Shown: positions 21,223-44,128 of the stretch, in pieces | Layout of the letters: each line of letters starts with the position of its first letter | Numbering within the stretch: the first letter of the stretch is position 1 | Origin: an uncultured Gemmatimonadota bacterium | Lineage (GTDB): Bacteria > JAAXHH01 | Reading direction: 5' to 3' | Assembly (NCBI GenBank): GCA_951812955.1 | Contig: OX638340.1 | Location: 2,272,001-2,336,000, forward strand | DNA: 64,000 bases | Translations under genes and position numbers: made by a program | Notes under the pieces: model-generated | Database searches by the model: none | The model's input: the letters and a program-made list of their open reading frames with translations, nothing else | What the model was told of the DNA's origin: nothing

Positions 21223-21267
21223 CTGGACACGGTTATTCATACCTTCTGGACACGGTTATTCATACCT
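21223..21267. repeat. exact 23-bp-period tandem duplication spanning the permease stop codon
   Basis: ctggacacggttattcatacct at 21223-21244 and 21246-21267. The second copy encodes ...RYE* of the minus-strand gene (TAA at 21256-21258). Confidence 0.9.
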
Positions 21268-23718: not shown

Positions 23719-23852
23719 GGCGGATCTCCAGCAGCTTAAAACGGGATTTCGTACAGGAAGCAGAAGCCACCCCAACCTTATGCGGACAATATAGTGTTCC
23801 CCTCGACTTTTCGGTACGACATTACAGGCGTAACGCGGCAACCAGGAGCACC

Positions 23853-25871: not shown

Positions 25872-26987
25872 ATGCACGACCCACGATATGGTGACCTGGC
25901 GAAGGTGCTTACCGGACACTCGACGAAGATCCAGCCGGGAGACCGGGTACTCATCGAGGCCTTCGACGTGCCCGATGAAATGGTTATCTCGCTCATCCGG
26001 ACGATCCGGGAAGCGGGCGGCGTTCCGCTGGTCTCCATCAAGCACCAGCGCGTCATGCGGGAACTGGTCCATGCCGGGGACGAGGCCGCGATGGAAGCCG
26101 CCGGCGCCTTTGAATCCCATCGCATGGAGCGGGTGCAGGCCTACATGGCCCTGCGCGGCAGCCGGAACGTGATGGAGATGTCGGACGTGCCTGGCGAAGC
26201 CATGCGGCTCTACGAGCAACGCTGGCTCAAGCCCGTGCACTTCGATATCCGCGTGCCAAAGACCCGGTGGGTGGTGCTGCGCTGGCCGACCCCGTCCATG
26301 GCGCAGCAGGCCGGCACGAGCACCGAGGCCTTCGAGGACTTCTTCTTTGACGTGTGCACCCTGGATTATGGGAAGATGGAAAGGGCCCTCGCGCCGCTGA
26401 AGGAGCACATGGACCGCACCGACCGTGTCCGGCTCACAGGTCCGGGTACCGACTTGAGCTTCAGTATAAGGGACATCCCCACCGTCGGATGCTCGGGCGA
26501 CCGTAACATTCCCGACGGCGAGTGCTTTACCGCGCCGGTGCGCGATTCGGTCAATGGCGTCATTACGTTCAACACGCCGACGCTGTATCACGGCGTGACG
26601 TTTACGGACGTGCAGTTGAGATTCGAAGACGGCAAGATAGCGGAGGCGAGCGGCAACCGGACGGAGAAGCTCAACGAGATCTTCGACACCGATGAGGGGG
26701 CGCGCTACATCGGCGAATTCGCCATCGGCTTCAATCCCCACATCACCGCGCCCATGCTGGACATTCTCTTCGACGAGAAGATCGCGGGTTCCTTCCACTT
26801 CACGCCCGGACAGGCCTACGAGGAAGCGGACAACGGCAATCGATCCGCCGTGCACTGGGACATGGTCATGATCCAGACGCCGGAATACGGCGGCGGGACC
26901 ATCGAGTTCGATGGGGAAGTAATCAGGAAAGACGGGATATTCGTCGTTCCGGAACTCGAGGGCCTGAATCCGGAACGATTGAGGTGA
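25872..26987 (+). CDS. M29-family aminopeptidase (AmpS/PepS-like)
   Basis: 371 aa: ...[12 protein letters not shown]...[11 protein letters not shown]...GEFAIGFNP...[16 protein letters not shown].... Confidence 0.85.
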
Positions 26988-27029
26988 AACAGGCGCGCTA
27001 CGACGACGCGGAGAAGATCGAAGAAAGTC

Positions 27030-29555
27030 CTACTGTTCCAACAGCATGAAGCTGGTCGTCCTGGTTGCGCGCTGCCCGGAATGCCGGTCCTCAAGCGTCA
27101 CCGCGAGCACATACACACCGGCCGTCAGGTCCGTGGTATCGATCGCCGTGTACTCGGCTTCCTCGGACGTATCGCCCTCGCCCTCATACGACAGAACGAC
27201 GGTCTGCAGGTCGCCGGACCGATCAACCGGACGGCCGCCCGTATCCGGCATGCCCTCGGGTTTGATCTCGTAGTAGGTCTGGTAGGAGGTCCGTCCCGCT
27301 TCGTCTCTGTCCAGGTTATAGATCTCGTAATACACGTACACCAACTGGCCCCGCCCATATGCGCGCAACGGATGCGGCACGATGTTCAGCCCTTTCCTGA
27401 CGAACGATCCGGTCTGGTCGGTCGGCGTTATACCGGTAGACATCTTGAGGCCGCTGATCATCAGATCGCGTCCCTGGTAATCGGGGATGGAAACCGGTTT
27501 CCTGTAGACGCCGATGCGCTGGGAGGTTTCATCCTGCATCTCCACGGCCGCCGTGAACTGTCCCGAAGGCACCAGGACATCGACGGCCAGCGTGTAGGCC
27601 GATACCCGGGCCTGTTCGGAGCTTATCATCCGCTTCGGCCGTTCGATGGGACCGAAGCGGAACTTCTGATTAAGCACCGGCTTGTTTACCGTATCGCGCA
27701 GCGTGGCCTGGTTTCTCAGGAAAGTTTCGTTTCCAAGGCCGTCGGTGACGTCTCCGAACTGCCAGACTGGAAGGCTGTAGACCAGTTCCATTACCGTTTT
27801 CTTGCCGTTCCCCCGGAAAGTGGTGATGTCGAAGGCATAGTCCAGGCCGTCGCCTCCGAAATCGTGCTCGTAGTCTTCCGGGCTACGCTCGATCAGCTGT
27901 TCGGCGATCCGCTGGGGATGATGCATTTCCTCCTTCTGAATTTCGTTGAATGCAGCGTTGTTATCGGGTTCCGTGGAGATCATCAGCGTGCGCAGGGGGT
28001 AGTCGAACCGGCCCCCTCCCATCTGGTCGACGAAGAACAATTCCATGTCGTGCGCCGCGTATACCCAGCTCTCCGACCTGTAAGACGGCCCCATCGCCCG
28101 TCTTTGAACGATCCTGGTTTCGTAGTTGACCTCGGATTGATCATTTAATGAAGACTCTTCTGTGGCTACGTTGTCCGCGGTGAGGTTGTTCACGGTCAGA
28201 AGTGATGCAGCGCCGAAGCCCGCGCGATTCTTCGTGTCCTGTTCCAGCTGGACGGACACCTGTCCCCGGTCCACTTTCAAGCGGTAACCGAACTGCCAGT
28301 TCTTTTCGCGAATGGCGTCCACGGCCGGATTGCCGGTGGGCATGTAGATATCTCTTGGGTCCTCGTATGAGCGGAAGAGAAACCGTCGGCGGTCGTCGGG
28401 CTCGCCATAGCGGACGTATATCTCCCCACGACGGTCGTAGGGGAACCGAGCCGAGGAAAAGTGTATACGTGCATACATCACCCGCTTGTAATGTTCGACC
28501 AGGCGTTCGTTCTCGACCGTGGCTGGATTCGGGTCCCGGGCATTCCAGAAGTCCTGCCACAACCTGTCGCGGGCCGGTCCTTTCGCGGCCTCCCAGGCCG
28601 CCAGCTCGTCGGGAGAAGCCACGTGGGCCAGGTCCCAGTAAATCTCCTGTTCCTCGGACTCAAGCCCCTTGATGTAGGTCTCCAGCGACCGCTGCAGCAG
28701 GTCGTACTGTTTCTTCGAACTCATGGACAGCGCTTCGAACTGCGTCAGCATGGTCCGGATCAGGTCGGGCGTGATACCCTCCATCTCCTCCGCCATCTTC
28801 CGGAGCTGTTCTGCGCCCCGCTCGTAATATTCGAACCGGTGACAGATGCCGGCGAATTTCCGAAGCGTCTCGGGATGGTCCGGATTGACCTGGTACTGTC
28901 TCAGGTAATTAGTCAGCGCCTTGATGTAGTCGTCGTAACGGTCCCTGACGCGCTTCCCGTGGTCCGCCAGCTTCAGTTCCTCGTAACAACGGCCGAGTTG
29001 ATAGAATGCGTCCGGATGCTCGGGATCCAATTCTACAGTCCGCTCAAAGTACGCCCGGCCATCCTGATGACTGCCGATCAGCCAGGCGGTATCGACCTGG
29101 TCCATGTACGTCAGGCCCATGATGTACTGGATCTGGGCGTTTTCGGGATCCAGTCTCATGGCGGTGCGCAACGCCTTCCGGGCATCGAGGCGCCGGTGCG
29201 GCATGCGATTGTATACGAGCCCCAGGCCCATATGGCCAGGTGCCCATTTCCTGTCTCTCCTGACCGCGTGCTTGAAGGCCTTGAGCGCTTCTGCGTCCCT
29301 GTTCAGTGCGAACAGGGCCATGCCGAGCCAGTAGTGGCCGGAAGCACTGTTCTTATTATCCAGTACCGCCTGCTGCAACGGAGGCAGCGCTTCACGGTAC
29401 ATGCCCAGTTCGTAGTAGCGTTTGCCTTCTTCAAGCGATGACTGGCTTGCCAGCCCTGCATCCGGCGGCAAGGCGGACTGGGCCTGCGAGCGACCGAATG
29501 GGACCCACACGGTCAGAATCAGTGCGGCGGTTGAAATGAAACGGAGTGTAGTCAT
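27030..29555 (-). CDS. secreted TPR-repeat protein with GWxTD-like domain (paralogue 1)
   Basis: Start at MTTLRFISTAALILTVWVPFGRSQAQ (signal peptide). TPR repeats, then ...FWNARDPNPATVENERLVEHYKRVMYARIHFS...PYDRRGEIYVRYGEPDDRR, which follows the FW..RDP...NE...Y..R...A...F...GWxTDRG.IY..YG.P layout, but the GW is replaced by PY. Confidence 0.65.
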   Translation of the reverse strand: MTTLRFISTAALILTVWVPFGRSQAQSALPPDAGLASQSSLEEGKRYYELGMYREALPPLQQAVLDNKNSASGHYWLGMALFALNRDAEALKAFKHAVRRDRKWAPGHMGLGLVYNRMPHRRLDARKALRTAMRLDPENAQIQYIMGLTYMDQVDTAWLIGSHQDGRAYFERTVELDPEHPDAFYQLGRCYEELKLADHGKRVRDRYDDYIKALTNYLRQYQVNPDHPETLRKFAGICHRFEYYERGAEQLRKMAEEMEGITPDLIRTMLTQFEALSMSSKKQYDLLQRSLETYIKGLESEEQEIYWDLAHVASPDELAAWEAAKGPARDRLWQDFWNARDPNPATVENERLVEHYKRVMYARIHFSSARFPYDRRGEIYVRYGEPDDRRRFLFRSYEDPRDIYMPTGNPAVDAIREKNWQFGYRLKVDRGQVSVQLEQDTKNRAGFGAASLLTVNNLTADNVATEESSLNDQSEVNYETRIVQRRAMGPSYRSESWVYAAHDMELFFVDQMGGGRFDYPLRTLMISTEPDNNAAFNEIQKEEMHHPQRIAEQLIERSPEDYEHDFGGDGLDYAFDITTFRGNGKKTVMELVYSLPVWQFGDVTDGLGNETFLRNQATLRDTVNKPVLNQKFRFGPIERPKRMISSEQARVSAYTLAVDVLVPSGQFTAAVEMQDETSQRIGVYRKPVSIPDYQGRDLMISGLKMSTGITPTDQTGSFVRKGLNIVPHPLRAYGRGQLVYVYYEIYNLDRDEAGRTSYQTYYEIKPEGMPDTGGRPVDRSGDLQTVVLSYEGEGDTSEEAEYTAIDTTDLTAGVYVLAVTLEDRHSGQRATRTTSFMLLEQ

Positions 29556-29574
29556 GATCTCTATGTGATAAACC

Positions 29575-29631
29575 GGGTACGGTATGGCCTGCAAGGTACG
29601 GTGTAGCCCGCATGGTACGATATGGCCTGCG
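29575..29631. promoter_or_regulatory. 3 x 19-bp direct repeats upstream of TPR-GWxTD paralogue 1
   Basis: gggtacggtatggcctgca / aggtacggtgtagcccgca / tggtacgatatggcctgcg, ending 20 nt upstream of the ATG at 29555. Confidence 0.4.
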
Positions 29632-29704
29632 AACAAACTGAACCGTCGATCAAAGCGGCTGTTTCCCCACACGTTCGGCGACGCGGGGAAGACCGAAGAA
29701 AGTC

Positions 29705-32125
29705 CTACCGTTCCATGACCAGGAAGTTGGCTGATTTGGAAACGGTACTTCCCGCGTGCAGGTCGGTAAGCCTGACAGTAAGTATATACTCACCCGCCGG
29801 CAGACCCGAAGTATCCAATGAAGTATACTCACGGTCCTCGGCTGAAGACCCTTCTCCCGCGAAGGCCATCATTACCGTCTGCATGTCTCTTTGCCTGCGG
29901 GCCGACCAGCCACGCCTTTCAGTAACCTCCAGGGGGCTGATCTCGTAGTGGAATTCGTACGCTGTTCTCTTCTCCCTGTCCAGGCTGAGGTTGTATATCT
30001 CGCAGTAAACGTAAACGGGGTTTCCCCGAAGGTAGAGCCGTCCCGGATTGGGCGTGATGTTCAATCCCTTGCGCACAAAGGGGCCCTGTACGCCTGTCGG
30101 AGCGATGATGGTGGCCAACTTGAGATCGCTGATGAGTAATTCTTCGCCGCTGTAATCAGACAGGGTGACTGGCTTGCGATACACTCCGATCCGGCTCGTC
30201 GTCTCGTCCTGCACCTGGACCGCCAGCGTGAAGCGTCCCGCCGGCGCCACGACGCTAGCGGGCAACGAATACACCGGGACATTCACTTGGCTTTCGGCCA
30301 TCGGCCCCTTCGGCCGGTCGAAGGGGCCGAAACCGAACTCGTGGGTGAACTGCGGGCTCATGGTCGAATCACGCAGGGTGACCAGGTGCGCGAGCCGGGT
30401 CCTGATCCCTCTGCCGTCCGACACCTCACCGAACTGCCATATGGGTATGCTGTAGGACAGATCCAGTTCCGTTGCACCGTTGTCCGCCCTGAAACTTACG
30501 GCGTCGAAGGCGTACTCGAGCGGCTCTCCGCCGTAGTCGTGCAGGTATTCCTCCGGGGCTTTGGCGATCAGTTCTTTGGCGAGCCGCCGGGGACTGAACC
30601 TTTCCTGCCGGGCCATCGCCTGCGGGTTGGTAAGCAGGTTGCCCTGGGGGTAATCGAATCGGCCCCCGCCGAACTGGTCGACGAAGAACAGTTCCAGGCC
30701 ATGCCGGACGTATACCCAGCTCTCGGTAGTGTATCCCGCACCCATTTCCTTTCTCTCCCTCTGCAGGTCAAAGACCGCGGATGATGCAACGATTCCGTCG
30801 GCCAGCGTTCCGCCAAGGGAGTCCAGTTCTGCTACAGTTACCCCCTCGGGCGGGACGATCGTCAAATTGCCCCGGTCGACACGCAATTGATAGCCAAACC
30901 GGTTATTCTGCTCTCGGATCGCGTCCACTGCCGCGTCATCGGAAATCGTAGCACTTTGATAGGCAATCCGATCTGCGTTATAGACGTTGCCGCGGCGGTC
31001 TTCCGGTTCACCGTAACGGACGTACATCTCGCCGCGGCGGTCATAGGGGTGCTGTCCCTGTGAAAAATGGTACCGGGCATACATTACGCGACGGTAATGC
31101 GCTACGAGGCGTTCGTTGGTCACGGTGGCGGGATTCGAATCCCTGGCATTCCAGAAGGCATGCCAGCGCGCATCGCGTTCGAGTCCGCCGGCTTCCTTCC
31201 AGGACGCCAGCTCGTCAGGAGTAGCCACGTGCGCCAGATCCCGGTAAACGCGCTGTTCGTCAGGGCCAAGAAGGGAAATGTACGTTTCAAAAATCCCATG
31301 CAGCACATCCGGCCGTGATTTCGAGTCTTCGGAAAGCGTGCTGAATTGCGTAAGCAGGGTCTGGACGATAGCTGAACCCGAATCTTCAAGTTCTGCTCCG
31401 GCATGTTCCAGTAACTCAACGGCCAGACCATACCTTTCGGAAAGAAGGGCCAGATAGACGAAACGGCCGAGTGCGTCGTAATGGCCGGGATTTACCTTGA
31501 ACTGCGAGATATATGCCGCCATCGCCTTGTCGAATTCGGGCGACTCGGGCCGTTCAAAACAACGGCCGATCTGAAAATACGCATCGGGATGGGAAGGATC
31601 CAATACCGCCGCTTTGAGGAAATAGTTCCGGCCGTCCCGGCCGCCACCCAGAATCCGGTCGGTCTTTCGCGGATTCATATGGGCGATTCCGATATGGTAC
31701 TGGATTTCCGGGTCGTCAGGCGCCAGCCTGGCCGCCATACGCAAGGCGTGACGCGCGTCCAGTCTTCGGTATTTCAACTGAATGTAGGACTTGCCCAGCC
31801 CCACGTAGCCTAACGCCAACTTCTCGTCCAGTTCGACTGAACGCTTGAACGAACTTACCGCCTTCCGGTATTGCTCCAACCCGTATTGAGCCATGCCGAG
31901 CCAGTAGTGGGCGGGCGCCGAACCCCCATCAGCCTCGACGGCCTGATTAAAGTACGGCAATGCTTCCGCGAACTTTTCCTGGTCGAATAGCGTCCGGCCC
32001 GCTTCCAGGGGAGTCCGCTGGCCGGTTTCAGCGACTGTATCCGTTGCGGAGGATTGGGCCTGTAGGCGACCCTGCATGAGTAAAACGAGCAGCACCGCTA
32101 CCAGAAGAACAGGGTATCTGGTCAT
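29705..32125 (-). CDS. secreted TPR-repeat protein with GWxTD-like domain (paralogue 2)
   Basis: 806 aa. Signal peptide MTRYPVLLVAVLLVLLMQGRLQAQS. TPR repeats. ...FWNARDSNPATVTNERLVAHYRRVMYARYHFS...HPYDRRGEMYVRYGEPEDRR. Collinear with paralogue 1. Confidence 0.65.
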   Translation of the reverse strand: MTRYPVLLVAVLLVLLMQGRLQAQSSATDTVAETGQRTPLEAGRTLFDQEKFAEALPYFNQAVEADGGSAPAHYWLGMAQYGLEQYRKAVSSFKRSVELDEKLALGYVGLGKSYIQLKYRRLDARHALRMAARLAPDDPEIQYHIGIAHMNPRKTDRILGGGRDGRNYFLKAAVLDPSHPDAYFQIGRCFERPESPEFDKAMAAYISQFKVNPGHYDALGRFVYLALLSERYGLAVELLEHAGAELEDSGSAIVQTLLTQFSTLSEDSKSRPDVLHGIFETYISLLGPDEQRVYRDLAHVATPDELASWKEAGGLERDARWHAFWNARDSNPATVTNERLVAHYRRVMYARYHFSQGQHPYDRRGEMYVRYGEPEDRRGNVYNADRIAYQSATISDDAAVDAIREQNNRFGYQLRVDRGNLTIVPPEGVTVAELDSLGGTLADGIVASSAVFDLQRERKEMGAGYTTESWVYVRHGLELFFVDQFGGGRFDYPQGNLLTNPQAMARQERFSPRRLAKELIAKAPEEYLHDYGGEPLEYAFDAVSFRADNGATELDLSYSIPIWQFGEVSDGRGIRTRLAHLVTLRDSTMSPQFTHEFGFGPFDRPKGPMAESQVNVPVYSLPASVVAPAGRFTLAVQVQDETTSRIGVYRKPVTLSDYSGEELLISDLKLATIIAPTGVQGPFVRKGLNITPNPGRLYLRGNPVYVYCEIYNLSLDREKRTAYEFHYEISPLEVTERRGWSARRQRDMQTVMMAFAGEGSSAEDREYTSLDTSGLPAGEYILTVRLTDLHAGSTVSKSANFLVMER

Positions 32126-32237
32126 GCCAAACCAACTTGTAGGGGGAAATGACGAAAAGAGATGGAACCTGCTTTAACAGATCCAGGTAATGCCTGCAAC
32201 CTACCCTTATTCGCGGCCACAGTCAAACAAAAGCGGC

Positions 32238-34610
32238 CTAATCTCGCCGCAGGGTGTCCGCCGGGTTGAGCATGGCGCTTCGGAAGGTATGCACGCTCAC
32301 GGTGAGCAGGGCGGTGGCCAGGACAACCAGTCCCGCCGCGACGAAAGGCGCAGCACCGATCTCCGTCCGGTAGGCGAAGTCCGCCAGCCACTCGTTCATG
32401 AGCCACCAGGCGGCCGGCCAGGCGAGGACGTTGCCGATCACCACGAGGACGACGAACTGCCTCGACAGCAGGCCGACTATATCTGAGACCGCGGCGCCCA
32501 TCACCTTGCGGATGCCGACTTCCCGCGTGCGGCGCGCGATGTCCAGCGACACGAGTCCATATACACCCAGGCAGGCGATCAGCAGGGCGAATACCGCGGA
32601 ATAGGTGAAAATGCGCGCAAGGTTGGCTTCACCCTCGTAGAATCGGGCGATGTCGTCATCAAGGAAGGAATACTCGAAAAGCGATTCCGGGGCGATCTCC
32701 ATCCATGCCGCTCTCAACAGATCCAACGTGGCAGGCAGGTCCCGCCCGCTGACGCGTACCAGGAGGAAATTAACACCACCCTGGGTTTCCTCCCCGAAGG
32801 AAGCGGGATTCATCGTCAGGATTACCGGCTCTATTTCTTGATGCATCGACTGGTAGTGGTAGTCCTCCAACACGCCGATGACCGTATATCCGTGGGGCAG
32901 GGTCCGTCCGAGGGGGTCGTCCCATTCCATCACCCTGGCCGCGGCTTGGTTGATTATACATGACCCGGATTCGTCGTTGCCGAACTCCCGGGAAAAATCT
33001 CGTCCTGAGACCAGGTTCAGCTCTAGCGCCTTCACGTAATCGTAATCCACCGTGAACATATATGCTTCAAGCTTGTTCCCGTCCTTATCTGTATAGGCGG
33101 ACTGACCCAGGCCCCGACCGAAGGTGTTGGAAGCTCCCGTCACCAGGATTACGTTCTCATACGAGTTTATCCTGGATTTATAGACGTCCGCGGAGTTGGA
33201 ATTGGGCCCCATGTGGATGACGATGACGTTTTCCTTGTTGTATCCCAGATCTGTGTTCATGACGAAGTCCAACTGTCGGGTCATGACGAGTATGGAAACA
33301 ACGAGTAAGGCAGACAGGCCGAACTGGACGACCATCAGGCCGCGGATAACCAGGTTTGGGCTCCCGATCCGAACCTGATGTCTGAATACGGCAACGGGAT
33401 TGAAACGGGAGAGGATCAGGGCGGGATAGCTCCCGGACGCCAGGGCAACCAGGCCAGTCAACACTAGTAGCGCGGCGATCGTAGAGCCGTTGGAGAGATA
33501 ATCTAGGACGTATGAGCTTCCCGCCAGCGTGTTGAATACAGGAAGAAACAGGTGGGCCAGGATAACGCCTAAGATGAGGGCGAAGCAACTCAACACCGCG
33601 GTCTCACCCAGGAACTGTTTCATGATCTGGGTTTTCTGCGCACCGAACACCTTCCGCAGTCCAACCTCCCTGGCGCGCGAAGACGATCGGCAGAAGGCCA
33701 GGTTCATGAAATTCACGCAGGCGATGAAAAGAACGAAAAGCGCCGTGCAAATCAGTATGTAAGACCTGTTGGGATCGCTCGTGGTACCCTGGCCAAACCT
33801 CACACCCTGAGCAAGATACATGTCCGTTAAAGGCTGCAATTCCAGGTATGGCGATCCCATCTGTGAAAAATGAGTCTCGACAAAACCCGGCAACTGGTTT
33901 TCAAGCATGTCTGCCATTTCCGGATCCGACAGCTCGACGTAGGTTGAGGAGACACTGTAGTTCCAATTGCCGATCGCCTGATTCGTCCAGTTGTCGATAG
34001 CAAACATTTTGTCGAAGGGGATCAGGAAATCGAACCGTATGCTGGAATTAACCGGAGTGTTCTCTGCTACCCCGGCCACCAAAAACGGTTCACCTCGTAT
34101 CGTGAGTTGCCTGCCCAGGGGGCTTCCCGTCCCAAAATACTTCTCGGCGGCGGACTGGCTGATCACCACCGAGTTCAGTTCGTTCAGGACCGTCCCGGGA
34201 TCACCTTCGATCAATGGGAAGGAGAACACGCTGAATATCGATGGATCGCTATACAGAACGTGTTCTTCCCGGAACACATCATTACCAACACGGACTTCCG
34301 CCCCTCCGGTGGTTCGTATTCGCACGGTCTGTTCGACGCCGGGATACTGTTCCTTAAAGGCAGCGGCAAGTGGAAGAGGGGTAATCCCACTGGTATATAA
34401 GTTATCCTCGAAACCTGATCCACCGACGTTGACCCGGTAGATCCGGTCCGCCTTCTCGTGAAAGGCGTCGTAGGTCCACTCCTGGCGCACGAAGAGAAAT
34501 ACGAGGAGGCTGCAGGCGATGCCGGTGGACAGGCCCAGCGTGTTGATGAAGAAGTAGCCCTTGTTGCCGAACAGGTGCCGAAACGCGATGACAAGGTGGT
34601 TTTTCAGCAT
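32238..34610 (-). CDS. orphan FtsX/MacB-type ABC permease (copy A)
   Basis: 790 aa: MLKNHLVIAFRHLFGNKGYFFINTLGLSTGIAC.... Two FtsX modules (...AREVGLRKVFGA..., ...TREVGIRKVMGA...). No ATPase gene nearby. Confidence 0.85.
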   Translation of the reverse strand: MLKNHLVIAFRHLFGNKGYFFINTLGLSTGIACSLLVFLFVRQEWTYDAFHEKADRIYRVNVGGSGFEDNLYTSGITPLPLAAAFKEQYPGVEQTVRIRTTGGAEVRVGNDVFREEHVLYSDPSIFSVFSFPLIEGDPGTVLNELNSVVISQSAAEKYFGTGSPLGRQLTIRGEPFLVAGVAENTPVNSSIRFDFLIPFDKMFAIDNWTNQAIGNWNYSVSSTYVELSDPEMADMLENQLPGFVETHFSQMGSPYLELQPLTDMYLAQGVRFGQGTTSDPNRSYILICTALFVLFIACVNFMNLAFCRSSSRAREVGLRKVFGAQKTQIMKQFLGETAVLSCFALILGVILAHLFLPVFNTLAGSSYVLDYLSNGSTIAALLVLTGLVALASGSYPALILSRFNPVAVFRHQVRIGSPNLVIRGLMVVQFGLSALLVVSILVMTRQLDFVMNTDLGYNKENVIVIHMGPNSNSADVYKSRINSYENVILVTGASNTFGRGLGQSAYTDKDGNKLEAYMFTVDYDYVKALELNLVSGRDFSREFGNDESGSCIINQAAARVMEWDDPLGRTLPHGYTVIGVLEDYHYQSMHQEIEPVILTMNPASFGEETQGGVNFLLVRVSGRDLPATLDLLRAAWMEIAPESLFEYSFLDDDIARFYEGEANLARIFTYSAVFALLIACLGVYGLVSLDIARRTREVGIRKVMGAAVSDIVGLLSRQFVVLVVIGNVLAWPAAWWLMNEWLADFAYRTEIGAAPFVAAGLVVLATALLTVSVHTFRSAMLNPADTLRRD

Positions 34611-34687
34611 GATCGTTTTGCCTCCTGTCGCTTACGAGCTGTAAGCCGGAAAACGTTCCTGAGGAAACACGATCTTGGAATGGCAAA

Positions 34688-34718
34688 GGGGATCTACGGT
34701 TTCGACCCGTCGATCCCC
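34688..34718 (-). other. conserved hairpin in the Big_2-permease spacer (copy A)
   Basis: ggggatc-t-acgg-tttcgac-ccgt-c-gatcccc. On the transcribed strand it is followed by TTTGCCATT. It lies in a ~75-nt block nearly identical to 39608-39680, although the flanking coding sequence has diverged. Confidence 0.4.
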
Positions 34719-34779
34719 TGAAAAGTTGCATGTTGGTAACTATTGCGATGCCGGAACTTACGTAGTGCATTCCCGACTG

Positions 34780-36381
34780 TCAGTCAACGACAAACGTGTT
34801 TTCACTACGGCGAAAACTCCTATCATCGCCAAACGAAACATCATAAACCAGTCTATACTCACCGGCGACTTCCGGATCGTATGGGCAAGCGTCGAATTCC
34901 ACCCGTGTGGCCTCGATGTCTTCCCATGTACTGCCCATATCGTCGCTTCGCTGCCATACGGAGTAATGGACCGTCATGGGGATACCTAACGGCTGAGTTG
35001 GGTAGTTGTTTAGTTCAGCACGAAAGAGTGAACTTGCACAGTATTCTATAGTTATAGGAGTATATCCTGGTCCCGTGAATATCAACTTACCGGGCTCGAC
35101 CTTCCAACCTTCCCACGGGACATAGACTATCTCGTCGACTGGCTCGTCGACGCCTTCGCCGCCATCCCCGCCATCCCCGCCTTCACCACCTTCCCCTTCA
35201 GTCGGAACCATGACCGTGATACTCACCATGGCCGACACGTCGCCGGACGCGGCCGTGACTACGGCCATGCCGTTGCCCACCGCTTCTACCAATCCATCCT
35301 CGTCCACGGTGATCACGTTTTCGTCACCGCTCGTCCACGTGACGGCCGGTTCGGCAATGGCATTGTCGTTCCCGTCGCTGACGGAAACCATGAGTTGCAG
35401 GGTCTGTTCGATCTCGGTCAGCGTGGTGGCATCGGGTGCGACCTCGATGCTGATGCCGGCCGGAACCTGGGCGACGGTGATCGACGCAGTCCCCATAGCG
35501 TCTCCGGCCTGTGCCGTGATCTCCGCCATGCCGTTGTCCACCGCGGTCACAAGCCCGTTCTCGTCCACGGTGGCCACGGCGTCATCGGCGCTTGACCAGG
35601 TCACCATCACGTCCTCCATCGCGTTTTCGTGCTGGTCCAGCACGACGGCCGCGAGTTCCACGGTGTCGCCGATCGCTTCCAGCGTGTGCGCAGCGGGCTC
35701 GATCGTCAGGCTCGTCGGCACGGATACGGATACCGTGATGGACGCACTGGCGGACAGGCTGCCGGATGTGGCCGTGATCTCAGCCATCCCGTTACTCACC
35801 GCCGTTACAAGGCCCGCCCCGCTCACGGTCGCCACGGCGTCGTCGCCGCTCGACCAGGTGATGGACTGGCCGGACATGATGTTGTTCCGCTGATCCCGCA
35901 CCGTAGCCGACAACTGTACCGTTTCCCCGATCGCCTTCAGCGTATGGGACGTCGGTGCGACCGTGATCCGGGTCGGCACCGGCTCGGCCACCGTGATGTT
36001 CGCAGTGCCCGTCGCGTTGCCGGACTGCGCCCTTATTTGCGCGGCGCCGTTGGCCACGGCCGTCACCAGGCCATTTCCGCTGACAGTCGCCACCGCGGTA
36101 TTGCTGCTCGACCAAGTCACCGCCTGGCCGGTCATCGGATTGTTGTTCTGGTCCCTCACCATGGCCATCAGTTGCACGGTCGCGCCAATCGTCGCCAGCG
36201 TGTGCGAAGACGGCGTGACAGAAATGCTCGTCGCAACGGGCGCAGGCGGTGGAGCAGGCGGGGTCGGTGTGGACGGCTCGGGACTCGTCGGGCTGCTGTC
36301 CCCGCCACCGCATCCCGCCAGAAAAACCAGGTACAAGGATGCCGTGATCTTGGCGAACACGCGACTGTATGGACCAAACAC
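34780..36381 (-). CDS. lipoprotein with four Big_2 (bacterial Ig-like) domains and a Cys-containing C-terminal domain (copy A)
   Basis: 533 aa. GTG start after AAAGGAG. Lipobox LVFLAGCGG and Pro-rich linker. Four repeats of ...TLxAIGxTVQL...VxWSSxxxxVATVxxxGLVTAVxNG.AxIxA... Gly/Glu/Asp linker GEGGEGGDGGDGGEG. The ~120-aa C-terminal domain is unassigned. Confidence 0.85.
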   Translation of the reverse strand: MFGPYSRVFAKITASLYLVFLAGCGGGDSSPTSPEPSTPTPPAPPPAPVATSISVTPSSHTLATIGATVQLMAMVRDQNNNPMTGQAVTWSSSNTAVATVSGNGLVTAVANGAAQIRAQSGNATGTANITVAEPVPTRITVAPTSHTLKAIGETVQLSATVRDQRNNIMSGQSITWSSGDDAVATVSGAGLVTAVSNGMAEITATSGSLSASASITVSVSVPTSLTIEPAAHTLEAIGDTVELAAVVLDQHENAMEDVMVTWSSADDAVATVDENGLVTAVDNGMAEITAQAGDAMGTASITVAQVPAGISIEVAPDATTLTEIEQTLQLMVSVSDGNDNAIAEPAVTWTSGDENVITVDEDGLVEAVGNGMAVVTAASGDVSAMVSITVMVPTEGEGGEGGDGGDGGEGVDEPVDEIVYVPWEGWKVEPGKLIFTGPGYTPITIEYCASSLFRAELNNYPTQPLGIPMTVHYSVWQRSDDMGSTWEDIEATRVEFDACPYDPEVAGEYRLVYDVSFGDDRSFRRSENTFVVD

Positions 36382-36463
36382 TGCTGTCTCCTTTCGGCTA
36401 ATTACTGAAAAGCGGTTCGTTGTAATCTACCGTTCTTGATCTCGATGAACAGATTATCTGACT

Positions 36464-37057
36464 TCATGCACGCAGGCCCTTCATACTCTCCCGGGCCGCT
36501 TCGAGGGTCCGGTCGATGTCTTCTTCGGTATGGGCCAGGGACACAAACCCCGTTTCAAGGCGCGAAGGCGCCAGGTAGACGCCCCGGTCCAGCATATTCC
36601 AGAAGTATCGCCCGTACGTATCCGCGTCTGACGTGGAAGCTGCATCGAAATTGTTGACGGTCTGATCTGTGAAGAAGGTACACATCATGGAGCCCACACG
36701 GGTCAGGCAGGCCGGGACGCCGGCCGCTTCCGCCGCGGCGCGAAGGCCGTCGCCGAGGCGGGCGGCCAGGGATTCCAGCCGGTCGTAGACCCCGGGTTCC
36801 TGAAGCTGCCGCACCGTTTCATATCCAGCGGTCATGGCAAGCGGATTGCCGGACAGCGTGCCGGCCTGGTAAACCTCACCGGCGGGCGCCACGGTTTCCA
36901 TGAACTTTTCCTGGTCGAATAGCGCACGTCCCGCTTCCAGGGGAGTCCGCTGGCCGGTTTCAGCGACTGTATCATCTGCGGTGGATTGGGCCTGGAGGCG
37001 ACCCTGCATGAGAAAAACGAGCAGGACCGCTACCAGAAGTACAGGGTATCTGGTCAT
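36464..37057 (-). CDS. chimeric ORF at the duplication junction: signal peptide/first 52 codons of the TPR-GWxTD gene fused in frame to the last 145 codons of hemL (probably non-functional)
   Basis: MTRYPVLLVAVLLVFLMQGRLQAQSTADDTVAETGQRTPLEAGRALFDQEKF | METVAPAGEVYQAGTLSGNPLAMTAGY...KGLRA. The second part is base-identical to 41855-42294 (hemL 3' end). The first part is ~95% identical to 31971-32125. Confidence 0.8.
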   Translation of the reverse strand: MTRYPVLLVAVLLVFLMQGRLQAQSTADDTVAETGQRTPLEAGRALFDQEKFMETVAPAGEVYQAGTLSGNPLAMTAGYETVRQLQEPGVYDRLESLAARLGDGLRAAAEAAGVPACLTRVGSMMCTFFTDQTVNNFDAASTSDADTYGRYFWNMLDRGVYLAPSRLETGFVSLAHTEEDIDRTLEAARESMKGLRA

Positions 37058-37169
37058 GGCAAACCAACTCGTAGGGGGAAATGACGGAAAGAAATGGAAC
37101 CTGCTTTAACATATGCAGGTAATGCCTGCAACCTACCCTTATTCGCGGCCTCAGTCAAACAAATGCGGC

Positions 37170-39541
37170 CTACTCGCTCCGCAGGGTGTCCGCCGGGTTG
37201 AGCATAGCGCTTCGGAAAGTATGCACGCTCACGGTGAGCAGGGCGGTGGCCAGGACAACTAGTCCCGCCGCGACGAAAGGCGCAGCACCGATCTCCGTCC
37301 GGTAGGCGAAGTCCGCCAGCCACTCGTTCATGAGCCACCAGGCGGCCGGCCAGGCCAGGACGTTGCCGATCACCACGAGGACGACGAACTGCCTCGACAG
37401 CAGGCCGACTATATCTGAGACCGCGGCGCCCATCACCTTGCGGATGCCGACTTCCCGCGTGCGGCGCGCGATGTCCAGCGACACGAGTCCATATACGCCG
37501 AGGCAGGCGATCAGCAGGGCGAATACCGCGGAATAGGTGAAAATCAGCGCCAGGTTGTTCTCATCCTGGTAGAACCGTTCTATATCGTCTTCCATGAAGA
37601 AATACTCGTAGGGCGTCTCAGGCGCTGTCCCCTTCCACGCGTCCTCGAGCAGGGAAAGCGTGGTTGGCAGATCCCTGCCGCTGACCCGGACCAGGAGGAA
37701 GCCGTAACTGACCGAAGTGTTACCCATGGATGTGGGATTGAGGGAGAGTATAATCGGATCGATCTCCTGGTGCAGCGACTGGAAATGGAAGTCCTTGACT
37801 ACGCCGATTACCGTATACCCATGGGGCAGTTTGCGCCCGATCGGATCTTCCCATTCCAGCTTCTTTGCCGCGGCCTCGTTGATGATGCACGATTGGAACT
37901 CGTCGTTTACGAATTCGCTGGAAAAATCACGGCCACGGACGAGGTTCAGTTCAAGCGTCTCCAGGTAATCGCGGTCCACGGTCGCCATGAACGCTTCCAG
38001 CTTGTTTCCGTCCGGTCGGTGTAGGCAACCTGGGGCAAGAAATGCCCCTGACCAAAGGTGCTGGAAGTGCCGGAAACCAGGAGTATGTCTTCGTACGGTA
38101 TCACTTTGCTGCGAAAGATCTCCAGGTCGTTTGAATTGAAGGGGGCCTGGATGACTACCACGTTGTGCGGGTTGAACCCCAAATCCCCCGTCCGCACAAA
38201 GTCCAGCTGCCGGGTCATGATGAGAATTGAAATGACGAGCAACGCGGACAACCCGAACTGCACGACCATCAAGCCGCGCACGAAGAGATTCGGCCCTCCG
38301 ATCTGAACCTGTTGCCGGAAGATGGTGACGGGGTTGTAGTGTGAGAGCACCAGGGAAGGATAACTGCCGGAAACCAGGGCGACCAGCACGGTCAAACCCG
38401 TCAGCGCGGCCAGCGTGGATCCGTTCGTCAGGTAGTCCAGCACGAGGGACTTTCCCGCCAGCATATTGAAAACCGGAAGGAACAGGTGGGCCAGGGCCAC
38501 GCTCAGCACCAGGGCGAAGCAGCACAGCGCCGCGGTTTCGCCCAAGTGCTGTCCCATGATCTGGGTTCGGCGCGCGCCGTAAACTTTCCTGACACCGACC
38601 TCTTTCACACGCGAAGACGAACGGCAGACGGCCAGGTTCATGAAGTTGACGCAGGCGATGAATAGTACGAGCAGCGCCGTGCAAATCAGGATGTAGGACC
38701 GGTTGGGATCGCTGGTGGGACCCAGCCCGAATTTGACTTCCTGATCCAGGTAGATATCGGTGATGGGTTGCAGGATCAGATAGGGCGACGAGTAGGCCGG
38801 GAAATGGGTTTCGACGAATTCCGGCAGTTGACTGAGGAGCGATTCTACTCGATCCGGATCCCCGAGTTCGATGAAAGTGGCCGTGGACGAATAGTTCCAC
38901 TTTCCGATGGCATTCGATATCCAGGGGTTTATTTCCGGCGCCTTGTCAAAGGGTATGAGCAGGTCGAACCGAATACTGGAGTTATCCGGTCCGTTCTCCG
39001 CGACGCCGGTTACGGTCAGCGGAATGCCCTGTACCAGGAGCGTCCTGCCCGTCGGAGACTCCTGGCCGAAGTACTTCGCCGCGGCGGATTTGCTGACGAC
39101 CACTGAATTCGCCTCGCCGAGGGCCGTACCGGGATCGCCTTCGATCATCGTGAAGGAGAACATCTCGAAGAAGGACGGATCGCAGAAAAGGGCGTTCTCC
39201 TTGCGGAACGTATCTTCTCCGATGCGAATATCGGATGGATATTCCGTTATGCGCACGGTCCGGACCACGTCGGGATATTGCTGCTCCAGGGTAGCCGCGA
39301 GCGGGAGGGGAGTTCTCGCGCTTATGAACGGGTTGTCGTCGAAATCCACTCCACCGGCTGCGACCTGGTAGATCCGGTCCGATTTCTCGTGGAAGGCGTC
39401 GTAGGTCCACTCGTGGCGGACGAAGAGAAAGATCAGGAGGCAGCACGCGATACCGGTCGACAGGCCAAAAGTATTGATGAAGAAATAACCCTTGTTGGCG
39501 AACAGGTACCGCAACGCGATGACGAGGTTGTTTTTCACCAT
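37170..39541 (-). pseudogene. orphan FtsX/MacB-type ABC permease (copy B) with a 1-nt frameshift near 38010-38020
   Basis: The N-terminal 508 codons are read in ORF 37946-39541 (...VAYTDR then nonsense). The C-terminal ~280 codons (PDGNKLEAFMATVDRDY...TLRSE*) are in the frame of ORF 37170-38900. Copy A reads AYTDKDGNKLEAY across this point. Observed tacaccgaccggacggaaac appears to lack one base. Confidence 0.7.
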
Positions 39542-39617
39542 GATCGTATTGCCTCCTGTCGCTTACGCATGCAAGCAGGAAAACGCACCTGGGGAAAGAC
39601 GATCCTGCAATGGCAAA

Positions 39618-39648
39618 GGGGATCTACGGTTTCGACCCGTCGATCCCC
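39618..39648 (-). other. conserved hairpin in the Big_2-permease spacer (copy B)
   Basis: Sequence identical to 34688-34718. Confidence 0.4.
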
Positions 39649-39708
39649 TTAAAGGTTGCATGTTGGTAACTATTGCGATTGGGAACTTACGTTGTGCATT
39701 CCTGACTG

Positions 39709-41772
39709 TCAGGGGATGACAAACGTATTCTCACTACGGCGAAAACTCCTATCATCGTCAAGCGAAATATCACCAACCAGTCTATACTCACCGGCGACTT
39801 CCGGATTGTATGGGCAAGCGTCGAATTCCACCCGTGTGTCCTCGATGTCTTCCCATGTACTGCCCATATCGTCGCTTCGCTGCCATACGGAGTAATGGAC
39901 CGTAATGGTGACACCTAACGGAGTTGGGCGGTTGTTTAGTTCTCCACCTAAGAGTGAACTTGCGCAGTTTACTATAGGTATTGTAGCAAGTCCTGGGACC
40001 GTAAAAACCAACCGACCGGGCTCGACCCGCACACCTTCCCACGGGACGTAGGTGACTTCATCCACCGTAATGGTCACCGTGATGCTCACCATGGCCGACA
40101 CGTCGCCGGACGCGGCCGTAACTTCGGTCATGCCGTTGCCCACAGCTTCTACCAACCCATCCTCGTCCACGGTGACCACGTTCTCGTCACCGCTCGTCCA
40201 CGTGACGGCCGGTTCGGCAATGGCATTGTCGTTCCCGTCGCTGACGGAAACCATGAGTTGCAGGGTCTGTTCGATCTCGGTCAGCGTGGTGGCATCGGGT
40301 GCGACCTCGATGCTGATGCCGGCCGGAACCTGGGCGACGGTGATCGACGCAGTCCCCATAGCGCCTCCGGCCTGGGCCGTGATCTCCGCCATGCCGTTGT
40401 CCACCGCGGTGACCACGCCGTTCTCGTCCACGGTGGCCACGGCGTCGTCGCCGCTCGACCAGGTCACCATCACGTCCTCCATCGCGTTTTCGTGCTGGTC
40501 CAGTACGACGGCCGCGAGTTCCACGGTGTCGCCGATCGCTCCCAGCGTGTGCGCGGCTGGCTCGATCGTGATGCTCGTTGCCACGGGCTCGGATATCACC
40601 ATGACCGTGATACTCACCATGGCCGATACGTCGCCGGATGCGGCCGTAACTGCGGCCATGCCGTTCCCCACCGCTTCTACCAAACCATCCTCGTCCACGG
40701 TGGCCACGTTTTCGTCACCGCTCGTCCACGTGACGGCCGGTTCGGCAATGGCATTGTCGTTCCCGTCGCTGACGGAAACCATGAGTTGCAGGGTCTGTTC
40801 GATCTCGGTCAGCGTGGTGGCATCGGGTGCGACCTCGATGCTGATGCCGGCCGGAACCTGGGCGACGGTGATCGACGCAGTCCCCATAGCGTCTCCGGCC
40901 TGTGCCGTGATCTCCGCCATGCCGTTGTCCACCGCGGTCACAAGCCCGTTCTCGTCCACGGTGGCCACGGCGTCATCGGCGCTTGACCAGGTCACCATCA
41001 CGTCCTCCATCGCGTTTTCGTGCTGGTCCAGCACGACGGCCGCGAGTTCCACGGTGTCGCCGATCGCTTCCAGCGTGTGCGCAGCGGGCTCGATCGTCAG
41101 GCTCGTCGGCACGGATACGGATACCGTGATGGACGCACTGGCGGACAGGCTGCCGGATGTGGCCGTGATCTCAGCCATCCCGTTACTCACCGCCGTTACA
41201 AGGCCCGCCCCGCTCACGGTCGCCACGGCGTCGTCGCCGCTCGACCAGGTGATGGACTGGCCGGACATGATGTTGTTCCGCTGATCCCGCACCGTAGCCG
41301 ACAACTGTACCGTTTCCCCGATCGCCTTCAGCGTATGGGACGTCGGTGCGACCGTGATCCGGGTCGGCACCGGCTCGGCCACCGTGATGTTCGCAGTGCC
41401 CGTCGCGTTGCCGGACTGCGCCCTTATTTGCGCGGCGCCGTTGGCCACGGCCGTCACCAGGCCATTTCCGCTGACAGTCGCCACCGCGGTATTGCTGCTC
41501 GACCAAGTCACCGCCTGGCCGGTCATCGGATTGTTGTTCTGGTCCCTCACCATGGCCATCAGTTGCACGGTCGCGCCAATCGTCGCCAGCGTGTGCGAAG
41601 ACGGCGTGACAGAAATGCTCGTCGCAACGGGCGCAGGCGGTGGAGCAGGCGGGGTCGGTGTGGACGGCTCGGGACTCGTCGGGCTGCTGTCCCCGCCACC
41701 GCATCCCGCCAGAAAAACCAGGTACAAGGATGCCGTGATCTTGGCGAACACGCGACTGTATGGACCAAACAC
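39709..41772 (-). CDS. lipoprotein with six Big_2 domains and a Cys-containing C-terminal domain (copy B)
   Basis: 687 aa. The first ~355 aa are identical to copy A. Contains an extra 176-aa (528-bp) two-domain unit (d3-d4 repeated as d5-d6, ~95% aa identity). The C-terminal domain is related to, but diverged from, copy A. Confidence 0.85.
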   Translation of the reverse strand: MFGPYSRVFAKITASLYLVFLAGCGGGDSSPTSPEPSTPTPPAPPPAPVATSISVTPSSHTLATIGATVQLMAMVRDQNNNPMTGQAVTWSSSNTAVATVSGNGLVTAVANGAAQIRAQSGNATGTANITVAEPVPTRITVAPTSHTLKAIGETVQLSATVRDQRNNIMSGQSITWSSGDDAVATVSGAGLVTAVSNGMAEITATSGSLSASASITVSVSVPTSLTIEPAAHTLEAIGDTVELAAVVLDQHENAMEDVMVTWSSADDAVATVDENGLVTAVDNGMAEITAQAGDAMGTASITVAQVPAGISIEVAPDATTLTEIEQTLQLMVSVSDGNDNAIAEPAVTWTSGDENVATVDEDGLVEAVGNGMAAVTAASGDVSAMVSITVMVISEPVATSITIEPAAHTLGAIGDTVELAAVVLDQHENAMEDVMVTWSSGDDAVATVDENGVVTAVDNGMAEITAQAGGAMGTASITVAQVPAGISIEVAPDATTLTEIEQTLQLMVSVSDGNDNAIAEPAVTWTSGDENVVTVDEDGLVEAVGNGMTEVTAASGDVSAMVSITVTITVDEVTYVPWEGVRVEPGRLVFTVPGLATIPIVNCASSLLGGELNNRPTPLGVTITVHYSVWQRSDDMGSTWEDIEDTRVEFDACPYNPEVAGEYRLVGDISLDDDRSFRRSENTFVIP

Positions 41773-41854
41773 TGCTGTCTCCTTTCGGCTAATTACTGAA
41801 AAGCGGTTCGTTGTAATCTACCGTTCTTGATCTCGATGAACAGATTATCTGACT

Positions 41855-43159: not shown

Positions 43160-44128
43160 TCAGAGTCTTCGGGCGACATCCATCGCGAAATAAGTGAGGA
43201 TCATGTCGGCGCCGGCGCGTTTTATGGCGGTCAGCGACTCCAGGACGATCCGTTCTTCGTCGATCCAGCCTTTCTGTCCTGCCGCCTTGATCATGGCGTA
43301 TTCCCCGCTCACGTTGTAGGCGGCCACCGGCACTTCAAAGGCCGATTTGACTCGTTGTATCACGTCGAGATAGGCCAGGGCCGGCTTGACCATGACGATA
43401 TCGGCGCCTTCCTCAAGGTCGAGTTCTACTTCCCGCAGCGCTTCGGTGGCGTTCGCCGGGTCCATCTGGTAGGAACGGCGGTCGCCGAATTGCGGGACCG
43501 AGTCCGCGGCGTCGCGAAAGGGCCCGTAATACGCCGAAGCGTACTTGGCGGAATAGGCCAGGATCGGGACATGCCCGAGGTGTTCGCCGTCCAGACCCTC
43601 CCGGATCGCACGCACGCGGCCGTCCATCATGTCCGACGGCGCAACCAGGTCCGCGCCGGCGCGGGCCTGCGAGAGCGCGGTCCTGACGAGCAGGCGAAGC
43701 GTGGCATCGTTCTCCACGTCGCCGTCCCGGATCACGCCGCAGTGCCCGTGATCGGTGTACTCGCAGAGGCATACGTCGCCGATGACGGTCAGTTCCGGTA
43801 CCGCTTGCTTGATCGCGCCAATGGCCCGTTGCACGATGCCGTCGTCCGCATAGGCTCCGGAACCGTAGGCGTCCTTGCTCTCCGGGATGCCGAAGAGCAT
43901 GACGGCCGGGATACCCAGGTCCACGACTTCACGGCAGGCCTCCACGGCCTGGTCAACCGACTGCCGGTCCACGCCGGGCATCGAATCTACCGGGGAACGT
44001 ACGCCTTCGCCCGGGCAGATGAACATGGGATAGACCAGGTCGTCCACGGAGAGCCGGGTCTCGCCGATCATGGCGCGCAGGCTTCCGGTCCGCCGCAGGC
44101 GCCGTAGCCGATGTACGGGAAATGCCAT
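43160..44128 (-). CDS. hemB: porphobilinogen synthase (delta-aminolevulinate dehydratase)
   Basis: 322 aa: [36 protein letters not shown]..., ...[11 protein letters not shown]..., ...YQMDPAN..., ...MVKPAL.YLD.... Confidence 0.95.

Follow-up and report, generated by a model that had tools for sequence, protein, structure and literature searches.

What drives ATP-binding cassette (ABC) type permeases in a stretch of DNA that encodes no ATPase, and do the genes around them contribute to the same machine? These questions are raised by a 64,000-nucleotide stretch of an uncultured Gemmatimonadota genome (assembly GCA_951812955.1, contig OX638340.1, positions 2,272,001 to 2,336,000; hereafter the window), in which genes for lipoproteins, permeases of the MacB/FtsX type and secreted tetratricopeptide repeat (TPR) proteins lie between positions 27030 and 41772. 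An earlier note, made from the sequence alone, had taken this interval for an uncharacterized envelope module with orphan permeases. The genes of the interval form an envelope cluster that is specific to its lineage and evolves rapidly; their products are members of known families, and the cluster is not a new kind of system. In the explanation that accounts best for the observations as a whole, and that we consider likely, a recent tandem duplication with an imported allele produced the present array, and the permease is powered in trans.

The tandem duplication and the probable source of the ATPase

The genes of the interval, the adjacent hemL and the two units of the duplication are as follows (aa, amino acids; nt, nucleotides; ORF, open reading frame):

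41855-43144, minus strand: hemL (glutamate-1-semialdehyde 2,1-aminomutase), intact, last gene of the hem cluster (TIGR00713, 620 bits; NF000818, 650 bits)
39709-41772, minus strand: lipoprotein with six Big_2 domains, 687 aa (PF02368, 213 bits, six stretches)
37170-39541, minus strand: permease copy 2, duplicated MacB_PCD+FtsX type, split into two ORFs
36464-37057, minus strand: chimeric junction ORF, 197 aa (from translation, the hemL model and a three-way alignment)
34780-36381, minus strand: lipoprotein with four Big_2 domains, 533 aa (PF02368, 157 bits, four stretches)
32238-34610, minus strand: permease copy 1, intact, 790 aa (PF12704, 134 bits, and PF02687, 80 bits, two stretches each)
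29705-32125, minus strand: TPR806, secreted protein with TPR and a GWxTD domain, 806 aa (TIGR04514, 49.8 bits)
27030-29672, minus strand: TPR880, secreted TPR and GWxTD protein, 880-aa ORF (TIGR04514, 55 bits)
36903-42294, minus strand: duplication unit 2, 5392 nt, with the 3' end of hemL, the six-Big_2 lipoprotein, permease copy 2 and a 5' fragment of the TPR gene
31964-36902, minus strand: duplication unit 1, 4939 nt, with a 3' fragment of hemL (hemL'), the four-Big_2 lipoprotein, permease copy 1 and the 5' end of the intact TPR806 gene

Seven co-directional genes directly downstream of the hem operon had been counted in the earlier note. Their positions and common orientation proved right, and the spacers between them measure 82-169 nt. 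One of the seven, at 36464-37057, is a TPR'-hemL' chimera located at the junction of the tandem duplication.

The head-to-tail arrangement of the two units was established by blastn, global alignment and a MAFFT identity profile. The duplicated unit begins in the middle of hemL, of which the 3' 440 nt (41855-42294) fall in unit 2, and ends ~160 nt into the TPR gene. It is therefore not exactly the Big_2-permease pair, as had been claimed, because the hemL 3' end and the TPR 5' end are included. At the crossover (~36902/36903), a three-way junction alignment shows that the parental sequences share only the dinucleotide TC, and such a 2-nt microhomology is a signature of microhomology-mediated tandem duplication. 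The 197-aa chimeric ORF starts with the first 54 aa of TPR806, including the signal peptide, and continues in frame with the ~143 C-terminal residues of hemL (matching positions 276-421 of the hemL model); it is probably a non-functional by-product. The ORF retains the upstream spacer of the TPR gene, from which expression of a secreted hemL fragment might be predicted.

The nucleotide identity between units 1 and 2 is distributed as follows:

hemL fragment, spacer and first four Big_2 domains (~1.5 kb): 100%
Insert with two extra Big_2 domains: 528 nt, in unit 2 only
Big_2 C-terminal domain: 73-95%
Permease core: 55-77%
Last ~400 nt of the permease: 99-100%
Continuation into the TPR 5' end: 82-94%

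Between the two copies, the permease core exhibits a synonymous divergence (dS) of 1.0-1.9 and a ratio of nonsynonymous to synonymous divergence (dN/dS) of 0.14-0.18, and the 3' block a dS of 0.10. Over the whole gene the dN/dS is 0.14-0.25, indicative of long-term purifying selection, and comparison of the copies at the level of whole domains yielded no indication of positive selection. A sister genome has one permease at this locus, to which copy 1 is 92-94% identical; the identity of copy 1 to P0001-P0003 is 92% (P and L numbers are our labels for proteins and loci). Copy 2, with its frameshift repaired (see below), is 71% identical to copy 1 and is closest to permeases of other genomes, at 78.6% identity. 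The duplication itself is absent from all 17 orthologous loci found elsewhere, each of which holds a single unit.

Divergence in place after the duplication was considered and rejected, since a core with dS>1 lies beside flanks that are 100% identical and the sister genome lacks the duplication. The same core values do not agree with the earlier proposal of a unit duplicated and diversified under diversifying pressure, and point instead to a recent duplication into which an old, purified allele was brought. On the simplest reading of the sequences, the duplication would be recent and unique to the window genome, and the two permease copies would be ancient alleles. A microhomology-mediated tandem duplication of ~5 kb, beginning within hemL and ending early in the TPR gene, would have left the chimeric ORF. 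Afterwards or at the same time, a long-diverged allele would have replaced the core of one unit, which comprises the Big_2 C-terminal domain and about three-quarters of the permease; this allele was most likely imported by homologous recombination with DNA of a related strain, as the identity mosaic suggests.

With regard to the motor, the earlier note was correct in that the 64-kb window encodes neither an ABC ATPase nor a membrane fusion protein (MFP), as judged by a motif scan, by Pfam on the long ORFs and by custom hidden Markov models (HMMs) on all ORFs. Both components are found in relatives. Permease homologs with 53%, 45% and 44% identity adjoin ABC ATPase genes of ~225 aa, sometimes together with an MFP gene. 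The gene order is permease-MFP-ATPase-permease-TPR-TPR in L026 and permease-ATPase-TPR in L003 and L101. In the sister genome (3,850,956 bp), the order lpxB-lactonase-MFP (444 aa, P0314)-ABC ATPase (224 aa) occurs with no permease within 10 kb, and the same genome also carries a canonical permease (809 aa)-MFP (458 aa)-ATPase (223 aa) operon and a further lone MFP. Five genomes contain an MFP (444 aa)-ATPase (231 aa) pair by lpxB/lpxK, likewise with no permease within 10 kb. P0314 shares 99.1% identity with P0295, an MFP attributed to the window genome.

A search with one such ATPase revealed that the small ATPase is more than 90% conserved across the clade. The two ATPases of the sister genome are 94% identical to each other, compared to 32-33% among its three permease paralogs; the corresponding ranges for ATPase and permease paralogs in general are 91-98% and 32-33%. 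The orphan status assigned to the permeases is thus not supported, given the homologs that adjoin ~225-aa ATPases and the permease-less MFP-ATPase pair and canonical operon of the sister genome. By the earlier note's own standard, a canonical ATPase-permease-MFP operon elsewhere that accounts for the permeases would speak against the module, and, judging from the sister genome, this is essentially what was found.

Judging from the sister genome and P0295, the gene for the motor very probably lies outside the window, in another part of the same genome. The window permease would then probably receive its energy in trans from a small MacB-type ATPase (~224 aa) that is encoded beside an MFP and has no permease of its own. 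According to the mechanotransmission scheme of MacB, LolCDE, FtsEX and YbbAP, one permease polypeptide would bind an ATPase dimer. Acting with the MFP and a TolC-like duct, it could export a substrate from the periplasm or the membrane. One ATPase, and perhaps also the MFP, would be shared by several divergent permease paralogs (~32% identical).

In at least six genomes (L009-L014, ~8500-12200 of each locus), the permease-less MFP-ATPase pair is located next to lpxB, DUF374 and a kdtA/lpxK fusion gene, and a large protein resembling Big_2, leucine-rich repeat (LRR) and M66 proteins is encoded ~5-7 kb from the pair in these loci. The permease-rich regions of relatives (L003, 6100-16100; L029, 17665-18190) contain many insertion sequence (IS) and transposase genes, permease fragments and truncated ATPase genes, which suggests that the transporter loci of relatives are frequently rearranged.

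Two further transport genes occur in the window:

21256-23859, minus strand: third duplicated MacB_PCD+FtsX permease, outside the interval of the earlier note
379-1647, minus strand: TolC-family outer-membrane efflux protein (OEP) (PF02321, 122 bits, two stretches)

The third permease is ~32% identical to those of the hemL locus and has no adjoining ATPase or MFP gene, so that none of the three permease loci in the window is accompanied by an ATPase. It is situated between a beta-lactamase-like gene and a GH106-like gene, an arrangement that is syntenic in L001, L016 and L019. The OEP corrects the statement that the 64 kb encode no outer-membrane partner. It represents a candidate partner for tripartite pumps, and its tie to the cluster at the hemL locus is putative. 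Two genes for MarR-family regulators (3419-4003 and 4699-5181) lie near the OEP gene, and any pump genes downstream of the latter would fall beyond the start of the window.

Several points weigh against this explanation. A similar identity mosaic would result if the duplication were old and gene conversion had acted at both of its ends, but the near-identical sister genome and all 16 other loci would then have to have lost it. An assembly artefact at the duplication is formally conceivable. The ATPase of the window genome is reached by way of the sister genome and P0295, and its pairing, and that of the MFP, with the hemL-locus permease is predicted from sequence. Finally, a functional link among the three gene types is unsupported by the covariation test and by the wider GWxTD family, both of which are described below.

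The lipoproteins and GWxTD-TPR proteins beside the permease

The ancestral content of the cluster is three genes, coding for a Big_2 lipoprotein, a permease with eight transmembrane (TM) helices and a secreted TPR+GWxTD protein, between hemL and the gene of an M29 aminopeptidase. The latter (25872-26987, on the strand opposite to the cluster) is the next gene after TPR880. The co-localization of the three gene types that the earlier note expected in other genomes was observed: the order hemL-Big_2-permease-TPR806-[TPR880]-M29 (opposite strand) recurs in 17 loci from ~15 related metagenome-assembled genomes (MAGs) of one clade. These MAGs are labelled Gemmatimonadetes or Gemmatimonadota, some of them being deposited as Latescibacterota, and several of their isolate or bin names (APA_, IRC1_, SB0665_, RHO2_, Plut_) resemble names in use for bins of sponge and coral metagenomes, which points to a presumed association with such hosts. 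Among the 17 loci, hemL is 91-95% and M29 91-96% identical; in a clade this tight (both >90%), conserved order alone says little about function.

The mean pairwise protein distances, determined for the 13 complete orthologous loci, are as follows:

hemL and M29: 7%
TPR806: 23%
Permease, N-terminal part: 28%
Big_2 C-terminal domain: 42%

The distances of the two flanking genes correlate with each other (rho 0.67), and those of the permease do not follow the flanks (rho ~0). After control for the flanks, no covariation was detected in these 13 loci among the permease, TPR and Big_2 C-terminal distances (partial r 0.06-0.09). In the sister genome (L001), the copy-1 permease allele (94% identity) is combined with a Big_2 C-terminal domain that is 61-65% identical to either copy. 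Co-inheritance of this domain and the permease as one cassette was rejected on the basis of this allele mix and the uncorrelated distance matrices. The lack of covariation and the allele mix thus describe three fast-evolving genes that are exchanged independently, which argues against tight pairwise co-adaptation and against the suggestion that the Big_2 protein and the permease act together.

The same data bear on the alternative that the Big_2 lipoprotein, the permease and the GWxTD-TPR protein constitute one dedicated envelope machine, in which the lipoprotein or the TPR protein would serve as periplasmic partner (compare EnvC, LolA, MacA and TesA) or as exported cargo, and the duplication would expand specificity. 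We consider this alternative unlikely. It draws on the gene order, short spacers and shared orientation kept in the 17 loci, on the extracytoplasmic or membrane nature of all three proteins, whose rates of evolution exceed those of the flanking hemL and M29 by a factor of 3-6, and on the fact that every characterized type VII ABC system has a periplasmic partner (PMC12646458). However, the conserved synteny also takes in the housekeeping genes hemL and M29, and both the missing covariation and the mixed alleles of the sister genome oppose it. A terminator-like hairpin follows the stop codon of the permease (32250-32233); this is a weak counterargument, as such sites occur at chance rate, and the promoter and terminator scan of the locus gave counts at chance level.

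Judged by profile searches, the lipoproteins are ordinary Big_2 proteins with a C-terminal domain outside the known Pfam and NCBIfam families. Their description as two lipoproteins with four or six Big_2 domains and a Cys-containing C-terminal domain holds. Both contain a LAGC lipobox after the signal peptide (LVFLAGC, with Cys at position 24), from which lipidation is predicted, followed by a Pro-rich linker, the Big_2 repeats, an acidic Gly-rich (Gly/Glu/Asp) linker and a C-terminal domain of ~120 aa with two invariant Cys residues and an Asp-box-like SDDMGSTW motif. The DNA encoding the N-terminus and the first four Big_2 domains is 100% identical in the two genes, the C-terminal domains share 75% identity, and an internal 528-nt duplication adds two Big_2 domains to the 687-aa protein. 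The internal duplication lies at 40070-40897 (minus strand), and its copies are 96-97% identical.

The C-terminal domain gave no match in Pfam, in NCBIfam or in a profile search of PDB sequences, and no match in Pfam or NCBIfam to the type IX secretion system (T9SS) C-terminal sorting domain, PEP-CTERM or similar tags. A structure model built from two sequences was poor (pLDDT 51). The domain turned up at the hemL locus only, which counts against a dedicated machine. The evidence that would make the Big_2 lipoprotein a partner or cargo of the permease is its synteny. In relatives, the orthologous lipoproteins often have LRRs inserted between the Big_2 domains and the C-terminal domain (L002, 7472-9819; L024, 5360-7369). 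The Big_2 gene of L002 seems to be split, with a 705-aa product and a 68-aa ORF that contains the remainder of the C-terminal domain.

By their sequences, the TPR proteins belong to a large GWxTD subfamily. The TIGR04514 model (GWxTD_dom; domain cut-off, 28 bits) matches TPR880 at residues 347-440 of the 880-aa ORF with 55.0 bits and TPR806 at residues 294-380 with 49.8 bits, in line with the GWxTD-like layout noticed earlier. Pfam PF20094 gave no match to either protein at E<=0.01. Both carry the segment PYDRRGE[MI]YVRYGEP, wherein HPYDRRGE or FPYDRRGE replaces the name-giving GWxTD. A search with the region from the GWxTD domain to the C-terminus retrieved 3942 representative clusters at E<=1e-3, of which 170 reached E<=1e-30. 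The motif could be parsed in 92 of the best 150 clusters, almost all of which read PWDxRGE.YIRYGEP; since PWDxRGE is common in the subfamily, the PYDRRGE of the window is a minor W-to-Y variant rather than an oddity.

A confident AlphaFold2 (AF2) model of TPR806 residues 285-806 (pLDDT 88, pTM 0.83) comprises a GWxTD region of helices and a small sheet, after which come two domains of the beta-sandwich type. A profile search of the PDB with alignment A3 returned matches to TPR proteins only, and the literature search found no paper mentioning the GWxTD domain. Some distant proteins of the subfamily (P0370, P0497) have a C-terminal FGE-sulfatase (formylglycine-generating-enzyme-like) domain, in one case followed by PEGA; this is a possible functional lead for the GWxTD family.

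TPR880, with a probable start at 29555 and thus ~841 aa long, is 45% identical to TPR806 and falls in a different, older paralog clade of the neighbor-joining (NJ) tree; in most relatives its orthologs are located elsewhere in the genome. It is a second, older GWxTD-TPR paralog located downstream of TPR806. A 55-nt direct repeat with 84% identity (27001-27055 and 29676-29730) overlaps the stop codon of both TPR genes and runs just downstream of it, consistent with insertion or tandem duplication of the second TPR gene at this site.

Outside the hemL locus, GWxTD-TPR paralogs occur directly beside permease paralogs that are 30-35% identical to those of the window, in L026, L029 (in the order TPR-permease), L003 and L101. 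The TPR protein of L003 is 45% identical to TPR806 and shares the PYDRRGE motif. All three GWxTD-TPR clades of the lineage are represented among these cases, a recurrence that speaks for the dedicated machine and is weakly suggestive of a TPR protein acting as partner or cargo of the permease. Against the machine stand two GWxTD-TPR paralog groups of the clade (15 loci) that have no permease, their neighbors coding for a glycoside hydrolase or a heptosyltransferase of the lipopolysaccharide (LPS) core, and ~70 distant GWxTD loci in JGI metagenomes (~0.9 Mb), near which no permease, ATPase or MFP is encoded. The link between GWxTD proteins and the permease does not, therefore, extend beyond the clade, and a general GWxTD-FtsX association was abandoned after negative results in the ~70 metagenome loci and a few distant genome loci.

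Permease architecture and the integrity of the locus

The permeases are members of the MacB/FtsX type VII ABC superfamily. Copy 1 matches PF12704 (MacB_PCD, 133.7 bits) and PF02687 (FtsX, 79.6 bits) in two stretches each, the latter at residues 289-405 and in the C-terminal half. It has eight predicted TM helices (4+4) and two periplasmic loops of ~230 residues (residues 40-283 and 444-670), in agreement with the earlier description of ~790-aa permeases with duplicated FtsX modules and large periplasmic domains. The alignment of copy 1 with the ADOP model TIGR03434 runs end to end (residues 6-790 versus model positions 5-803) at 293.1 bits, below the cut-off of 622.3. The permeases thus resemble ADOP proteins and are not ADOP members by the NCBI criterion.

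This end-to-end match to ADOP ("ADOP family duplicated permease") could be taken, together with the missing ATPase within 64 kb and the frameshift in one copy, as a sign that the permeases are true orphans, either ATPase-independent (passive scaffolds or receptors, as speculated for ADOP) or decaying remnants. We regard such a state as very improbable in view of the long-term purifying selection on the whole gene, the ABC ATPases that adjoin homologs at 44-53% identity and the permease-less MFP-ATPase pair of the sister genome and five others. Moreover, Pfam matches to FtsX in both halves of the permease indicate that the FtsX cytoplasmic loop region is retained in each.

The frameshift reported for one permease was located in copy 2 as a -1 shift, in which a single G is missing from a G run at ~38011-38013; its insertion restores an uninterrupted protein of 790 aa. 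Either the gene was inactivated very recently or the shift may be an error of sequencing. A public protein collection contains the 531-aa ORF of copy 2 as P0041 (100% identity), which shows only that the ORF belongs to the deposited assembly. That the tandem array is an assembly artefact, in which two strain variants were concatenated, the frameshift is a sequencing error and the real genome has a single unit, is highly unlikely: the 1-nt deletion in a G run, the allele-like difference between the units, the lack of the duplication in any other genome and the contig names of related records (ctg..._75x_c), which suggest long-read metagenome assemblies, would all fit, but strain collapse would not make a new TPR'/hemL' adjacency with a clean 2-nt microhomology and an in-frame fusion, and flanks that are 100% identical over 1.5 kb are the opposite of what two divergent strains would be expected to give.

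Upstream of the interval, the hem cluster contains the following genes in addition to hemL:

47556-49148, minus strand: hemA (glutamyl-tRNA reductase)
46536-47516, minus strand: hemC
44968-46539, minus strand: cobA/hemD
44155-44772, minus strand: conserved ORF of 205 aa between cobA/hemD and hemB, with no Pfam match
43160-44128, minus strand: hemB

The ortholog of the 205-aa ORF in L002 shows a weak match to a double-zinc-ribbon (DZR) domain.

Significance and comparison with known systems

The analysis adds to these known families the anatomy of the duplication, the probable supply of ATPase and MFP from elsewhere, the allele histories that are decoupled from the flanks and the clade-limited permease-GWxTD adjacency. 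A tandem duplication with an identifiable junction and an apparently imported allele is thereby documented. For annotation, "orphan" duplicated FtsX/MacB permeases of this lineage should not be taken as ATPase-independent. A motor and adaptor encoded as a separate, highly conserved pair would offer, for one clade, a testable answer to the puzzle of ADOP-type orphan permeases. That the permease and Big_2 C-terminal alleles do not share the history of the housekeeping genes beside them bears on the variation of envelope proteins in symbionts, and the adjacency of permease and GWxTD genes in this clade is a modest lead for the GWxTD family.

A broader proposal would be that one near-invariant MFP-ATPase engine serves interchangeable, highly polymorphic fused permeases of the MacB type, while a hot spot beside hemL shuffles permease, Big_2 C-terminal and GWxTD-TPR alleles independently between strains and occasionally stacks them in tandem, driven by frequency-dependent pressure from phage or host, with the GWxTD-TPR proteins as periplasmic partners or cargo of the pumps. 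In its entirety this proposal is quite unlikely; if it held true, the role of the GWxTD-TPR proteins would be the first clue to what the thousands of members of the GWxTD family do.

Like the members of the GWxTD family, both TPR proteins score above the TIGR04514 cut-off and keep the layout W..RD...NE...Y.R...A...F...[motif]RG..Y..YG.P. They differ in that the motif is P[W/Y]DRR, the wider subfamily having PWDxRG and the window clade the W-to-Y change, and in that the PF20094 threshold is not reached.

As in the MacAB-TolC system, genes for MFPs (YknX/MacA-like), ATPases (MacB-type) and OEPs (TolC-like) occur in the clade, and canonical MFP-ATPase-permease operons with the same permease family are present in L026, L006 and L015. 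Unlike MacAB-TolC, the components are scattered here, the ATPase is separate rather than fused as in E. coli MacB, and the permease is a fused double module. The genes for the other parts of a putative pump exist (MFP P0295 and the OEP at 379-1647).

The window permease shares with the ADOP proteins (TIGR03434) the composition of two MacB_PCD+FtsX modules, alignment over the full length, the occurrence of several divergent paralogs per genome and the lack of an adjoining ATPase. To our knowledge, ADOP family members essentially never adjoin ATPase genes. In contrast to ADOP, the window permease scores below the cut-off, is found in Gemmatimonadota rather than Acidobacteriota and has relatives at 44-53% identity that do adjoin ATPases. 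In the literature searched, the phrase "duplicated orphan permease" receives only passing mention, in two genome papers.

Mechanotransmission is the working principle of the type VII ABC permeases, which cooperate with an ATPase dimer in the cytoplasm and with a partner in the periplasm; for the fused permease YbbP, these are YbbA, bound in a 2:1 ratio (YbbA to YbbP), and TesA (PDB 9GE6-9GE8; PMC12646458). Similarity of the window permease to solved structures is low, its best PDB sequence matches being MacB chains (E 5e-11 to 1e-8). Unlike YbbP and BceB (10 TM), it has eight predicted TM helices (4+4) with no linker pair and, unlike YbbAP-TesA, its gene is not adjoined by those of the ATPase and MFP. 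Like the permeases of YbbAP-TesA, MacB, LolCDE and FtsEX, it possesses MacB_PCD (Sabre/Porter-type) domains between TM1 and TM2 of each FtsX module. Like YbbP, it is internally duplicated, a single polypeptide that mimics a dimer, and its small ATPase would be encoded by a separate gene, with two ATPases expected per permease.

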